Shown: positions 4,080 through 9,100 of the stretch, in pieces
Numbering within the stretch: position 1 is the stretch's first letter
Layout: each line of letters starts with the position of its first letter
From: an uncultured Bacilli bacterium
GTDB taxonomy: Bacteria > Bacillota_I > Bacilli_A > RF39 > UBA660
Reading direction: 5' to 3'
Length of the DNA: 64,000 nucleotides
Assembly: GCA_934096295.1 (NCBI GenBank)
Contig: CAKOLL010000001.1
Location: forward strand, 180,229-244,228
Made by a program: the position numbers and the translations under genes
Notes under the pieces: generated by a model
The model's database searches: none
What the model was told of the DNA's origin: nothing
Seen by the model: the letters and a program-made list of their open reading frames with translations, nothing else

Positions 4080-4989
4080 CTACTATTGATGGTCTTATTT
4101 CATAGTCATTAGTACTTAAAGCAATCATACAAGTCTTTTTAAAATTAATAAAACCTAAACCCTTTATTAAAACATCACTATTTTTAGAAACAATTATGTT
4201 ACAATTAACATCTTCGGTTTCTTTTCTTCTTTGTATTTTAATATCATTTCCTGCATATATTGTGAAATTAGTATCTTCAAGAATATTTAACTTAATATCA
4301 TTTATTAATAGATAATGTTTACTTGGAAATTGATAAGTTATAGGCCTAATACTGCTTTTAGGAATATTTTCTCTATTGATATTACTCATAAATCCTGGAG
4401 CATCATAAATAGTTATCCCCATTACATTAAGCTTAATAAAATCTTGCGTTGTATTAGATTTTTTACTTACAGTTATATCGCTACCCACTAAAGCATTTAT
4501 TAAACTACTTTTACCAGCATTTGTAAAGCCAGATAAACATATATTTTTTTCGTCTAAACAAAGATTAGTAATTGTTTTAATATTGAGTCTTGTTTTACTG
4601 CTTGTTAAAATAATATCTTCTTTGATATCATAAACATCTTTTATATTATTAATTAGTTTATGATATTTAATATTTTTAGGAATTATGTCAGCCTTTGTAA
4701 TAATTAATGTCTTTTTATTATGTATTTTTTTATAAGTATTTATAACCTCACTATCAAGATTAATAAAATCTACTAAAAATAAAACATGAGATTTTAGTTT
4801 GTTAATGCTATCTATTAAATTAGAGTTATCTATTGAAACACCTTCATTTGTTAAAACATTGTAATTTTTTAATTTAAAGCATCTTTCACAAAGTTTATTT
4901 TTAATATCAGGTGTATAACCTACCATCTTACTATCTTTATCTTGAAGAGTTATGCCGCATCCTACACATTTAGTCATAGTATTCACCAC
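4063..4989 (-). CDS. yqeH: Ribosome biogenesis GTPase YqeH (circularly permuted GTPase)
   Basis: N-terminal Zn ribbon CVGCGITLQ...CERCF, G-motifs (TKAD, GFTNAGKSSLINAL). Conserved yqeG-yqeH pairing. Confidence 0.85.
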   Translation of the reverse strand: MVNTMTKCVGCGITLQDKDSKMVGYTPDIKNKLCERCFKLKNYNVLTNEGVSIDNSNLIDSINKLKSHVLFLVDFINLDSEVINTYKKIHNKKTLIITKADIIPKNIKYHKLINNIKDVYDIKEDIILTSSKTRLNIKTITNLCLDEKNICLSGFTNAGKSSLINALVGSDITVSKKSNTTQDFIKLNVMGITIYDAPGFMSNINRENIPKSSIRPITYQFPSKHYLLINDIKLNILEDTNFTIYAGNDIKIQRRKETEDVNCNIIVSKNSDVLIKGLGFINFKKTCMIALSTNDYEIRPSIVGDSND

Positions 4990-5491
4990 TTTTCAAAATA
5001 TTCTTTTTAGCTAGTTTTTTAAAAACAAAACTTTCGAAAAAACGATTTATTTTAGTTGGAAATATTTCTGTTTTGGCAACTCTATTTACAAGGATACTAG
5101 TAAATCCCATGCGATTAGCACCGAGAATATCCGTAAATAATTGGTCTCCGATGCATGCTATTTCATCAATTTTAAATTTATATAATGTTAATATTTTTTT
5201 ATATTTCTTTTTAAATGGTTTTCTACTACTAAAAGCTACATCAACATTTAATTTTTCTTTAAATGGTCTAAGTCTATTTTTACCACTATTTGATACAATT
5301 ATTATTTTAAAATCTTCTTCTAGCCTTGCAAAAAGTTCTTTTACTTTTTGATCTGGTACATCAACTTTATATGGGGCAATTGTGTTATCTAAATCAAAAA
5401 GAAGACACTTTATACCATTTTTCTTTAGTTTTTTATAATTTATTGTGTAAATGCTTTGAGCATAAATATCTGGTATTAATAAATCAAGCAT
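4970..5491 (-). CDS. yqeG: YqeG family HAD-IIIA phosphatase
   Basis: 173 aa with DLDNT HAD motif I and GDQLFTDILGANRMG motif. Located directly upstream of yqeH. Confidence 0.8.
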   Translation of the reverse strand: MLDLLIPDIYAQSIYTINYKKLKKNGIKCLLFDLDNTIAPYKVDVPDQKVKELFARLEEDFKIIIVSNSGKNRLRPFKEKLNVDVAFSSRKPFKKKYKKILTLYKFKIDEIACIGDQLFTDILGANRMGFTSILVNRVAKTEIFPTKINRFFESFVFKKLAKKNILKSGEYYD

Positions 5492-5721
5492 ATTATCATT
5501 CCTTTTCTTTTAAAATTATATCATAATTTATTTGAAATTTTAACTAAAAATTAAAAGAAAAAGCAACAAGTATCAAAATGACTTTGGTAAGCGTGTACTT
5601 GTTGCCGTAATAATAATAACATATAAATTTAACTTATGCAAGCATTTGTTGCCAAAAACTAAATTTTTTTTAAATAATAAAGTTATTTTTTACTATTTTA
5701 TAAGTATTATCAATAAATTTA

Positions 5722-5750
5722 TTTACACGTTTTTATCAACATGTTATAAT
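5722..5750 (+). promoter_or_regulatory. Sigma-A-type promoter (TTTACA-17-TATAAT) driving a short plus-strand transcript
   Basis: TTTACA at 5722-5727 and TATAAT at 5745-5750. No plus-strand CDS follows. Confidence 0.5.
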
Positions 5751-5754
5751 TATT

Positions 5755-5885
5755 ATGACGGGAGTTGGTAGTCCCAGCTTAGCTTCGGCGCCCCAATGGG
5801 TTAAACACAAAATTGAAGGTTGCTTTGCCTAATACATATTAGGATTCTACCATTTGAACTTATCATTAGATAAGTTCTTTTTATT
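5755..5885 (+). ncRNA. Candidate small RNA of about 130 nt, family unknown, carrying a tRNA D-arm-like motif
   Basis: Bounded by the promoter above and an intrinsic terminator (GAACTTATC-ATTA-GATAAGTTC plus a T-run, 5856-5885). The GC-rich core GGGAGUUGGUAGUCCC...GCUUCGGC...CCCAAUGGG forms several short hairpins. Confidence 0.35.
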
Positions 5886-6003
5886 TTATGCAAATTCATT
5901 TGTTTACATACTAATAATAACATATACTCTTTATCTTGTCATTATTTAATTCTATTTAAGTTTCTGTAAGAGATATTGACTTTGGACCACAATACAAATA
6001 ATA

Positions 6004-6025
6004 AATCCCCGTAAGTACGGGGATT
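6004..6025 (-). terminator. Terminator downstream of tRNA-Arg
   Basis: AATCCCCGTA/TACGGGGATT hairpin followed by a T-rich tract on the minus strand. Confidence 0.55.
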
Positions 6026-6036
6026 AAAACACTTTA

Positions 6037-6113
6037 TGGTGTCCTCGATGAGAATTGAACTCATGACCCTATGCGTCGGAGGCATATGCTCTATCCAACT
6101 GAGCTACAAGGAC
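6037..6113 (-). tRNA. tRNA-Arg (anticodon CCG)
   Basis: Minus-strand sequence GTCCTTGTAGCTCAGTTGGATAGAGCATATGCCTCCGACGCATAGGGTCATGAGTTCAATTCTCATCGAGGACACCA folds as a cloverleaf. Acceptor is 7 bp, anticodon loop is CTCCGAC, T-loop is TTCAATT and CCA is encoded. Confidence 0.85.
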
Positions 6114-6130
6114 CCATAAACATTTTAGCA

Positions 6131-9100
6131 TTATTTTTTAGAAATAGCAATTAATACTCTTTCGTTGTCAATAAAGAACTCTTCATTAGCAGATTCATTA
6201 AATTCTATACTTGTTGCTAATGTTTCTTTTTTAATATAATCACTAAATTCTTCAATAGCAGTCTTAATTTTATCATTAGCATTGTAAGTAACATTTATTC
6301 TATCTGTTAGTTCATAATTATTATTTTTTCTCATTGTTTGAACTTTAGATATAATTTCACGAGCAATACCTTCATTGATTAAGTCATCTGTTAATGTAGC
6401 ATTTAAAATAACAAAGTTATTATTTTCCATTCCCACATCAAAGCCTTCTTTAGCATTTATTCTTATATCCACCATGTCACTATAGATGTCATATTCAGTA
6501 CCTGCTACTGACATTTTTATTGATTCATTATTTTGAAGCTTTTTAATATCACTTAGTGGTAATTCTAGTAATTTATCTTGGAATTCTTTTAAGCTGCTTC
6601 CAAATACTTTACCAACATTTCTAAAGTTTGGTTTAACAGTAAAGTTCATATATTCAGATGTATCTTTTACATATGTAACTTTCTTAACATTTAATTCTTC
6701 TTTAATAAGTTCAGTAAGTTCTCCGATAACCATACTATTTTTGCCATCGATTAAGATTTCACTTAGAGGTTGACGAACTCTTAGTTTTTGTTCTTCACGA
6801 ATATTTCTTCCAATACTTATTAGTTCACGAACTAAATCCATTTTTTCTTCTAATAATTCTTCAATTTTTGTTTCATCATATTTTGGAAAATCAGCTAGAT
6901 GAACAGATTCTTTTCCAGTTAGATTAGTATACATTTCTTCAGATAGGAATGGCACTATTGGAGCCATCATTTCTGATAAACCTACTAACACTTCATATGT
7001 AGTTATATATACTGATTTTTTAGAATCATCTAGTGTACTTCCCCAGAATCTGTTTCTATTTCTTCTGATATACCAATTTGATAAATCATCTGATACAAAG
7101 TCTGTTAGGGCTCTAACTACTTTATTTAAATCATATTCATCGTATGATTCTGTTACATATTTTAATAATTTATTATATTTACTTATTAACCATCTATCAA
7201 TATCTTCTCTTTTTTCTAGTGGAATATTGCAATTCTTTATATCAATATCATCAATATTAGCATACATTGAGAAGAAATTATATGTATTTTTAAGAGGATT
7301 AAAGAATTTAGAATGAACTTCTTTTAAACCATTAATATCAAATTTAAGAGGAACCCAAACTGGTGAAACATATGGTAAATAGAATCTAACTGTGTCAGCA
7401 CCATATTCTTTCATTGTTGTAAATGGTTCAACAATATTACCCATTGTTTTACTCATTTTCTTACCATGAGCATCCAATAATAGATCATTTACTAAAACAT
7501 TTTTAAATGGACTTACACCTTTTACAAATGTAGAAATAACTAATAATGTATAGAACCATCCACGAGTTTGGTCGATTCCTTCACAAATGTAATCTGCTGG
7601 GAATTGGGTTTCAAATAAATCATTGTTTTCAAATGGATAATGGTATTGTGCAAATGGCATGGCACCTGAATCAAACCAACAGTCAATTACATCTTTACAT
7701 CTAGTCATAGATTTGCCACATTCTGGACATTTTAAGTGGACATCATCAATAAATGGTCTATGTAATTCAATAGACTCATCAATATCTTCGATTGCTTTTT
7801 CAACTAACTCTTTACGAGAACCAATCATTTCAGTGTGTCCACATGAACAAATCCAATATGGAAGTGGTGTTCCCCAGTATCTTGAACGAGAAATTGCCCA
7901 ATCGTTTAAATTTTCAAGCCAATTACCAAAACGTTTTTCACCAACATATGATGGATACCAATTAACTGTTTTATTATTAGCAACAATCTTATCTTTAATT
8001 TTAGTTATTTCTAAGTAATAACTTGGTTTAGAATAATAAATTAATGGAGTATGACATCTCCAACAATGAGGATAGTTATGAACTATTCTTTGTTTTCTAA
8101 ATAATTTATCATTTTCTTTTAAATAACTTATTACTAATTCATCAGCAGCAAAGACATTTGTGCCTTTCCATGGTCCTTCTGTATATTTTCCGTCTTCACC
8201 AACTGGATTTAAGTATGGTAAATTATATTTTCTACCAACGCTCGCATCATCTGCTCCGAATGCTGGTGCTAAATGTACTACCCCAGTACCGTCTTCAGCA
8301 GTAACATAAGAATCACAACATACAAAGAAACCTTTTTTATTTACAGTTAACTCTGGTATTAATTGTTCATATTCTGTATATTCTAGAGTACTTCCTTTAA
8401 ATGTATCAAGGATTTCGACATCATCACCTAGAACTTTACTAACTAGGGATGTTGCTAATATAAACTTATTACCTTTACTTAAAACAAGTGAATAATCATA
8501 ATCTGGATTTACACATAATGCAACATTTGCAAGTAATGTCCATGGTGTAGTTGTCCAAACTAAGAAGTAAACATCTTCATCTTTTTTCTTCATTGGTACA
8601 ATTACTGTATCAACACTAGTTTCTTCATAACCTTGTGCTACCTCATGAGATGCAAGTCCCGTTCCACATCTTGGACAATACGGAAGAATTTTAACTCCTT
8701 CATAAAATAATCCTTCTTCAAAGAATTTTTTTAAAATCCACCATTCTGTTTCAATATAATTGTTATCATATGTAACATATGGATGTTTAATGTCTATGAA
8801 TTGTCCCATTTTTTCAGTAAGGTCTGTAAATGTACTTTCATTTTTCCATACACTTTCACGACATTTTTGATTGAATTCTTCGATACCATATTTTTCGATA
8901 TCTTTTTTACCTGAGAAACCTAATTCTTTTTCTACTTGTAATTCAACAGGTAATCCATGTGTATCCCAACCTACTTTACGTAATACTTTGTATCCTTGCA
9001 TTGTTTTATACTTACAAATTGTATCTTTTAAAAACTTTGCAACCATATGATGTAAGCCTGGATGTCCATTTGCTGTAGCTGGGCCATCATAGAATACGAA

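Follow-up and report, generated by a model that had tools for sequence, protein, structure and literature searches.

What is made from a short promoter-to-terminator unit that no gene follows? The question is raised by positions 5722-5885 of a 64,000-nucleotide (nt) stretch of DNA, referred to here as the window, in contig CAKOLL010000001.1 of a very AT-rich uncultured gut member of the Bacilli ('Tenericutes'/RF39-like). The unit was found to contain one copy of a structured RNA whose family is not in Rfam and of which no description was found in the literature searched. In other bacterial and prophage loci, copies of this RNA lie just upstream of genes for proteins of the Pfam family PBECR4, and the window copy is read here, with a little better than even confidence, as an orphan RNA that would serve PBECR4 as antidote or attenuator within a type III-like toxin–antitoxin or abortive-infection family.

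The unit was located between yqeG (4970-5491, minus strand) and the gene of a transfer RNA, tRNA-Arg(CCG) (6037-6113, minus strand), as a single plus-strand arrangement in which a GC-rich core (5756-5854) stands between a promoter (5722-5750) and an intrinsic terminator (5856-5885). It is complete and would yield an RNA of about 100-130 nt. An earlier reading made from the sequence only had described its main parts, and these were recovered as described. The sigma-70-type promoter, TTTACA-17-TATAAT, showed 11/12 matches with an extended -10 TG and was the best promoter-like site within 5000-6500; three related loci (L096, L097 and L099; such handles denote individual loci) have a homologous proximal promoter. 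The GC-rich segment begins at 5757 (GACGGGAGTTGGTAGTCCCAGC), close to which transcription likely starts, and its GC content rises to 0.52 in 5760-5819, where the background is about 0.2, and equals the level of the neighbouring tRNA. The terminator, GAACTTATC-ATTA-GATAAGTTC at 5856-5877 followed by TTTTTATTTT, has a 9-bp stem, an ATTA loop and a T-run, and is one of two terminator-like sites in the region, for which 0.2 would be expected by chance. As had also been noted, no gene was found downstream on the plus strand, where the minus-strand terminator of tRNA-Arg(CCG) (6025-6004) is followed by the tRNA gene itself.

Around 40 homologues of the core were found by pattern scans and a covariance model (CM) in metagenome, viral and protein-anchored searches. 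Exact-pattern scans located one copy on a viral contig of 89.8 kb (L080) and five metagenome copies (L094-L098), all of them with long identical blocks and compensatory differences in two hairpins. BLAST of phage and plasmid collections returned chance matches only, and the short viral patterns GGGAGTTGGTAGTCCC and AGCTTCGGCG..GTTAAACAC mostly did the same. The window core matched the covariance model R1, built from homologues, over its full length (model positions 1-102; 96.5 bits, E 2e-21), this being the sole significant R1 match across the 64 kb. Conservation and covariation, proposed in the sequence-only reading as a check, were both found: dozens of phage and bacterial contigs conserve the RNA, and its helices covary.

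Pairs were counted on an alignment that was derived with the CM and comprised 28 distinct sequences, in which 96.1% of paired cells were complementary, compared to 27-49% when the partners were slid, and in which two-sided changes affected nine pairs (33 cells), a result reached by none of 500 shuffles. The fold is multi-branched, with a closing helix of 6-7 bp (H1) that encloses the hairpins P2 and P3, an A-rich conserved junction and the hairpin P5; H1, P2 and P5 were independently predicted by RNAalifold. In the window, H1 pairs UGGUAGU (5766-5772) with UCUACCA (5846-5852), and compensatory changes were detected in four of its seven pairs, with UAGCAGC/GCUGCUA, UGAUAG/CUAUCA, UGACAGC/GCUGUCA and UGUGGC/GCCACA as variants of UGGUAG/CUACCA. 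P5 (5827-5844, GCCUAAU-ACAU-AUUAGG(A)) showed compensatory changes in five of six pairs and was 97.6% paired. P2 (5777-5789), a GCU/GGC stem in the window and GCC/GGC in the family, with the nearly invariant 7-nt loop UAGCUUC, was 100% paired yet almost invariant, so that covariation is uninformative about it either way. P3 (5791-5801), reduced in the window to the 3 bp of CCC-AAU-GGG, fell out of register in both MAFFT and CM alignments, and its covariation was based instead on per-sequence folds, which in 13 sequences gave stems of 3-8 bp, at least eight different stem sequences and loops of UUCG, GCAA or GUAA. The junction UAAACACAAAAUUGAAGG (5802-5819) is single-stranded and conserved, the string CAAAAU-N-GAAG being nearly invariant among the 28 sequences. 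A homologous terminator with compensatory changes, beginning 0-4 nt after the closing helix, was found at every tabulated chromosomal or prophage copy and was absent in the phage-contig copy L080. For the terminator, P3 and a leader hairpin termed P0, described below, the structure is kept and the sequences differ.

Other pairings were tried on the same sequences. A helix P4, of GAAG with CUUC, was rejected because its 3' partner becomes CUGC, CAGC or CCGC without compensation, and a UUCG-tetraloop mini-hairpin in place of P2, disrupted in L094, was not favoured. The element GGGA-GUUGGUAG-UCCC, previously likened to a tRNA D arm, is not an established hairpin, as its loop UGGUAG(U) is the 5' strand of H1. 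The GGG/CCC helix, P1, would form a pseudoknot with H1 if it formed at all.

The homologues also bear on the 25-codon open reading frame (ORF) embedded in the core (5755-5832, plus strand), and so on the explanation that the unit is a leaderless small-protein gene or else a functionless, decaying pseudogene of a tRNA or of something else. In its favour are the open frame in the window, the adjacent tRNA gene and the translations of several homologues, which yield a comparable peptide (TGVGSPSLASA..VKHKIE). However, the start codon was absent or shifted in many homologues, the frame was not conserved and was interrupted by in-frame stops in seven of them (L097, L099, L100, L102, L115, L121 and L137), substitutions were compensatory for the RNA (e.g. 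CCCC..GGG to ACCU..AGGU) and the conserved 3' element UCUACCA lies past the stop codon. No ribosome-binding site for the ORF was found in the window sequence. As to a pseudogene, there was no similarity to tRNA models, and neutral decay is excluded by conservation over dozens of different contigs of phages and bacteria. Both forms of this explanation are very improbable and the ORF was judged not to be a gene, in agreement with the earlier view of a non-coding structured small-RNA unit with an unlikely coding role: the ORF is not conserved, whereas the RNA helices covary.

With regard to its identity, no Rfam 15 family was matched at gathering score in the window, so that the Rfam search suggested earlier gave no name, and no relevant match was obtained in ten homologous loci. 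At E values up to 10, the only match on the unit was AbsR28, aligned essentially to the terminator hairpin. The proposal of a tRNA-derived element or D-arm mimic was not borne out, either in the window or in the phage copies: ARAGORN called tRNA-Arg alone in the window and did not call the RNA unit, the Rfam tRNA model did not match the unit at any E up to 10, and the phage copies were likewise not recognised as tRNA. The position beside tRNA-Arg, to which attention had been drawn, is true, but is better explained as the remnant of a prophage integration site than by derivation from a tRNA, since chromosomal modules elsewhere were found convergent to the 3' end of tRNA-Cys (L103), tRNA-Gln (L118) or transfer-messenger RNA (L097). 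A link to tRNA biology of another kind may exist, because the RNA is also located inside phage tRNA arrays.

The association with PBECR4 appeared when the sequences following the RNA were inspected. In L096, L097 and L098, the terminator was directly followed by a ribosome-binding site and a gene beginning MIERLIETFEELKKY or similar, and the protein of L097 matched Pfam PBECR4, in full 'phage-Barnase-EndoU-ColicinE5/D-RelE-like nuclease 4', above the cut-off (E 3.9e-8). A protein search returned 176 PBECR4 homologues of about 190 amino acids (aa). Contigs were obtained for eleven of these (50-79% identity) and for one viral locus, and the RNA was present just upstream of PBECR4 in 28/28 loci. 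The distance from the RNA core to the PBECR4 start codon was 42-54 nt, which leaves room only for the terminator hairpin, the U-tract and a ribosome-binding site, and none for a promoter. In order, the module consists of two tandem sigma-70 promoters, the P0 leader hairpin, the core of about 95 nt, the terminator, the ribosome-binding site and PBECR4. P0, of 30-40 nt, was present in all PBECR4-linked copies except L122 and covaries (e.g. AAUAAUA/UAUUAUU vs. AAUAGUA/UACUAUU). The modules were mostly found at prophage ends next to the integrase, for example with a helix-turn-helix repressor and ImmA before RNA-PBECR4 and a serine or tyrosine integrase after it; some were downstream of lysis genes, and isolated modules were found between host genes in L099, L103 and L118. 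Among the module loci, no protein-antitoxin candidate was consistently adjacent.

Two observations on individual modules may be added. In L121 (1861-2484), a MazF/PemK-like gene of 207 aa directly precedes the prophage RNA-PBECR4 module, with the result that two RNase-toxin-like genes stand side by side between ImmA and the integrase. In P0079 and P0105 (L135 955-1706), the called N-terminus of PBECR4 is about 40 residues too long, the extension being the RNA core and terminator in translation (MEGYLPNTKLGFYRKG...), an annotation artefact that conceals the RNA.

The AlphaFold model of PBECR4 was confident (predicted local distance difference test, pLDDT, 90.6). Fold searches returned no significant neighbour in the PDB, and the BECR toxins colicin D, a RelE/ParE-like toxin, RegB, BrnT and CdiA-CT were found only among the marginal matches. 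PBECR domains have been predicted to be metal-independent RNases (PMC5512222), and the invariant residues of PBECR4, which include His38, His43-Lys44, Arg90, Ser118 and Ser156, are compatible with such a putative activity. An RNA partner for PBECR or BECR proteins was found neither as an Rfam family nor in any paper of the literature searched.

The dependence between the two components went one way only, as PBECR4 was never found without the RNA, whereas the RNA was often found without PBECR4, in the window, in L094 and in phages. This asymmetry is the pattern expected of an antidote. When IMG/VR was scanned with the most conserved 18-mer of the RNA, 13 further true copies were obtained (CM 42-100 bits), and only L142, on the same contig as L134, was linked to PBECR4; 13 of the 14 RNA-bearing phage contigs were without PBECR4. 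A scan of viral contigs for PBECR4 itself detected none with a single-protein query and one locus with an alignment-based query. On the chromosome, L094 (4930-5545) and L103 (2960-3675) represent one site in two strains, identical through the T-run of the terminator, after which the PBECR4 of L103 gives way in L094 to a MazF/PemK-like gene of 170 aa. The two strains match again from about 100 nt beyond the stop codon of PBECR4 in L103 and from the base just after the gene in L094; the difference is a precise cassette swap between flanks that are identical on either side.

Six of the phage copies lie within tRNA arrays, on the tRNA strand (L141, L148, L145, L143, L146 and L080): the copy of L141 is 3 nt upstream of a tRNA-Gly, that of L148 is between tRNA-Gly and tRNA-Glu, and that of L145 is inside a cluster of 16 tRNAs. 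This placement suggests co-transcription and tRNA-type processing and, together with the absence of PBECR4 from most viral copies, speaks for an independent phage small RNA, acting as a tRNA-like decoy, a host-enzyme substrate or a base-pairing regulator, which PBECR4 would process or use. The multi-branch layout, with a 7-bp closing helix and three hairpins, and the fact that several BECR RNases act on tRNA (PMC5512222), with colicin D among the weak fold matches to PBECR4, are in line with such a role. Against it, neither ARAGORN nor the Rfam tRNA model takes the RNA for a tRNA, no complementarity to a target was found, and a linkage to PBECR4 in 28/28 loci at fixed spacing argues for a dedicated partnership; we consider this explanation improbable. 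In size (about 95 nt), in layout and in strand, the RNA does resemble the tRNAs of these arrays, but it differs from them: signatures of a T loop and an anticodon loop are absent, the A-rich junction is long and an invariant GGGAG extends the 5' end.

As regards the arrays themselves, the 16 tRNAs of L145 (150-5552) lie in 7 kb, and L080 5817-5885 belongs to another phage tRNA array. The phage arrays include a tRNA called SeC(tca), suppressor-like in appearance, and an odd tRNA with a 2-nt 'anticodon' call was noted in L080 and L095.

In seven further phage loci (L138, L139, L140, L144, L149, L150 and L152; four distinct sequences), the RNA was found after a terminator-like hairpin, about 15 nt upstream of a phrog_3314 gene of the packaging region and without a terminator of its own; in L144, the phrog_3314 gene adjoins the large terminase. 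A conserved terminator-like hairpin (GTAGAACTC..GGGTTCT-T7) precedes the RNA at L138 10870-10913, with equivalents in L144 and L150, and takes the place of the P0 leader in these phages. Over the copies as a whole, the downstream gene differs, and some copies have none.

These loci bear on the main rival to the antidote reading, which is a portable cis-acting leader, either a riboswitch-like element or an attenuator that responds to a protein or a tRNA. Such a leader would sense a signal and control whatever gene comes next, through its translation or through read-through of the terminator, and in the window it would have lost that gene. The RNA lies directly 5' of PBECR4 in the 28 loci, but also of the MazF-like gene (L094), of phrog_3314 (L138, L144 and L150) and of a 57-aa ORF that follows the copy of L080; very highly conserved junction nucleotides surround a variable hairpin, as in an aptamer; and the terminator stands within 0-4 nt of the closing helix. 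Nevertheless, the copies in tRNA arrays that are followed by no ORF, such as those of L141, where a tRNA comes after 3 nt, and L148, between tRNAs, cannot be cis-regulators of an ORF, and they fit a trans-acting anti-defence RNA. Moreover, no conserved antiterminator pairing with the terminator arms was found on inspection of the sequences, the tandem strong promoters suggest an abundant RNA product, and the copy in the window is equipped with a promoter and a terminator of its own, has no downstream gene and is fixed in its species. A cis-acting leader is therefore regarded as rather unlikely, although less so than an independent phage RNA.

According to the antidote reading, RNA and PBECR4 would constitute a type III-like toxin–antitoxin or abortive-infection module, in which an abundant, terminated RNA would bind and neutralise the predicted PBECR4 RNase, and the terminator would hold transcription of the toxin low. 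The toxin-less copies of phages, often in tRNA arrays, would serve as an anti-defence antidote, and the window copy would be the antidote-only remnant of a decayed prophage element integrated beside tRNA-Arg. The window RNA is probably still transcribed, and it may protect against incoming PBECR4 toxins or be a mere relic. A more specific version, put forward tentatively and held to be possible rather than probable, is that the two form a hitherto unrecognised family of gut Bacilli prophages, in which a single multi-branch RNA of about 95 nt, close to a tRNA in size, would inhibit a BECR-fold RNase that possibly cleaves tRNA, or serve as its pseudo-substrate. Lytic phages would have captured the RNA, either into their tRNA arrays or ahead of their packaging genes, as an anti-defence RNA, and the window copy would provide standing immunity.

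Several points weigh against the antidote reading. The toxicity of PBECR4, its binding of the RNA and the expression of the RNA in the window are all properties that we infer from sequence. The position of the RNA before phrog_3314 and MazF-like (L094) genes also fits the portable leader. Canonical type III antitoxins are defined by an array of tandem repeats, whereas the RNA is single-copy. P1 and P2 do not vary, which leaves that part of the fold unproven. With P0 lost and two weakened pairs, the copy in the window could be decaying. Finally, neither PADLOC nor NCBIfam has a model for PBECR4, and the gap in PADLOC is to be counted here.

Among known systems, the closest in arrangement is AbiF/RCd22 (abiF RNA motif, RF03085) of the Clostridioides difficile phi027 prophage, which shows the same order of promoter, non-coding RNA, terminator and toxin gene. 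RCd22 has a sigma-A promoter and a Rho-independent terminator, the toxin mRNA being made only by read-through, and neutralises the toxin both in cis, through termination, and in trans, through binding (bioRxiv 10.1101/2025.04.15.648962); its action in cis by premature termination may equally be quoted in favour of a cis-acting leader. Both systems are prophage-borne, near the lysis or integration end, and in neither is the RNA a long tandem array. They differ in that no Rfam abiF match was obtained here, in the fold (a multi-branch structure of about 95 nt vs. two 36-nt motifs), in the toxin, which is Abi_2 (HEPN) there and PBECR4 (predicted BECR fold) here, and in that RCd22 was studied experimentally, whereas here the genes alone were analysed.

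The ToxIN, CptIN and TenpIN systems likewise have an RNA gene and terminator immediately upstream of an endoRNase toxin gene, the RNase being a predicted one in the case of PBECR4, and a role in abortive infection, here proposed for RNA-PBECR4. Phage phiTE can escape ToxIN by carrying a pseudo-ToxI antitoxin-like RNA, to which a trans-acting RNA in phage tRNA arrays would be analogous. In contrast to those systems, the RNA described here has no tandem repeats and makes one large fold closed by a long-range helix: Tandem Repeats Finder (TRF) detected no repeats in window 5550-6040, and the one repeat that it detected in L097 was AT-rich, 10 nt long and located in the promoter region. The partner is not ToxN, AbiQ, CptN or TenpN, and its only Pfam match was PBECR4. 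An operon of RNA, terminator and toxin gene without a protein antitoxin, which is the broad definition of type III, was found in the homologous loci and not in the window. A non-repetitive small RNA beside a toxin gene is also seen in AvcID, where AvcI lies beside the AvcD toxin, is classed as a type III antitoxin and takes part in phage defence (PMC10511110); AvcD, however, is a deoxycytidylate deaminase and not an RNase, and the RNA is unrelated. RNA-PBECR4 would be a type III-like module whose RNA is new and non-repetitive and whose toxin fold is new as well.

Within its species, the window copy is fixed, as the RNA was present in 9/9 same-species metagenome contigs (identical YqeG) and the 640-nt spacer was identical across them, except that two of the nine differ by a single-nucleotide polymorphism in the loop of P5, at 5834. 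At the yqeG neighbourhood of 79 related genomes, the RNA was not found by blastn, nhmmer or CM. The spacer between tRNA-Arg(CCG) and yqeG (window 5492-6036) was hypervariable when compared to L002, L006, L007, L012, L019 and L020, with unrelated inserts and small ORFs in the related species and conservation of the tRNA and of the yqeG promoter, and looks like an integration hot spot. Therefore, from its absence in the 79 relatives and the hypervariable spacer, the unit is a lineage-specific insertion. It is flanked by an imperfect direct repeat, with a left copy at 5599-5635 and a right copy at 5900-5937 (local score 42; shuffled mean 22.8, maximum 36; 0/500 reach it), that looks like an att-type duplication. 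The left copy overlaps the 3' arm of a native conserved hairpin, and its sequence is native, being found also in relatives without the RNA (e.g. L002).

The claim that the unit is an orphan proved right, since no gene follows it and tblastn detected no PBECR4 anywhere in the 64-kb window; accordingly, no PBECR4 start codon lies 42-54 nt past the core. Upstream, the best local alignment with L096 covers window 5671-5887, so that 5671-5721 is homologous to the distal-promoter region of PBECR4-linked copies, but is degenerate: L096 and L097 have TTGACA-17-TATAAT at the equivalent position, and a clear TTGACA is absent from the window. P0, of about 35 nt elsewhere, is missing, and the -10 box ends 5 nt before the core (5756), apparently fused to the 3' part of P0 through a deletion between TATAATT repeats. 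In P2 a U-G replaces a C-G pair, and in P5 the closing G-C pair is a G-A mismatch; these are the only departures from standard pairing in the counted helices of the window copy. Its score of 96.5 bits compares to 100-107 for the PBECR4-linked copies of group 1 and to 83-107 for all linked copies.

If the antidote reading is true, the few toxin systems neutralised by RNA would gain a new family of RNA together with a new toxin fold (BECR/PBECR4), and antidote RNAs would not need to be repeat arrays. The solo PBECR4 proteins, uncharacterised and common in uncultured gut Bacilli (RF39-like), would gain a first functional context, and phages would offer a testable case of an RNA antidote among tRNA genes, with a bearing on why tRNA arrays persist. 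The covariance model would also improve annotation, given that gene callers sometimes fuse the RNA into the PBECR4 ORF, as in P0079 and P0105.

Two minor features were noted around the unit. On the minus strand, a promoter-like site at 5942-5914 (ATGACA-17-TATTAT with TG, 10/12 matches) is directed into the RNA unit. The hairpin at 5877-5856 is without a T-run when read on this strand, and an antisense transcript could thus cross the RNA gene as far as a second hairpin at 5610-5556. This latter hairpin, GCAACAAGTA ... TACTTGTTGC at 5556-5610/5635-5653, has a conserved 23-nt loop (CTTACCAAAGTCATTTT), with GCAAGCATTTGTTGCC nearby repeating an arm, and is conserved in L002 and L006, both of which are without the small RNA. 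On the minus strand, 5556-5610 reads as a stem with a T-run just upstream of the yqeG promoter, and the hairpin may serve as an insulating terminator or represent a small RNA in its own right.

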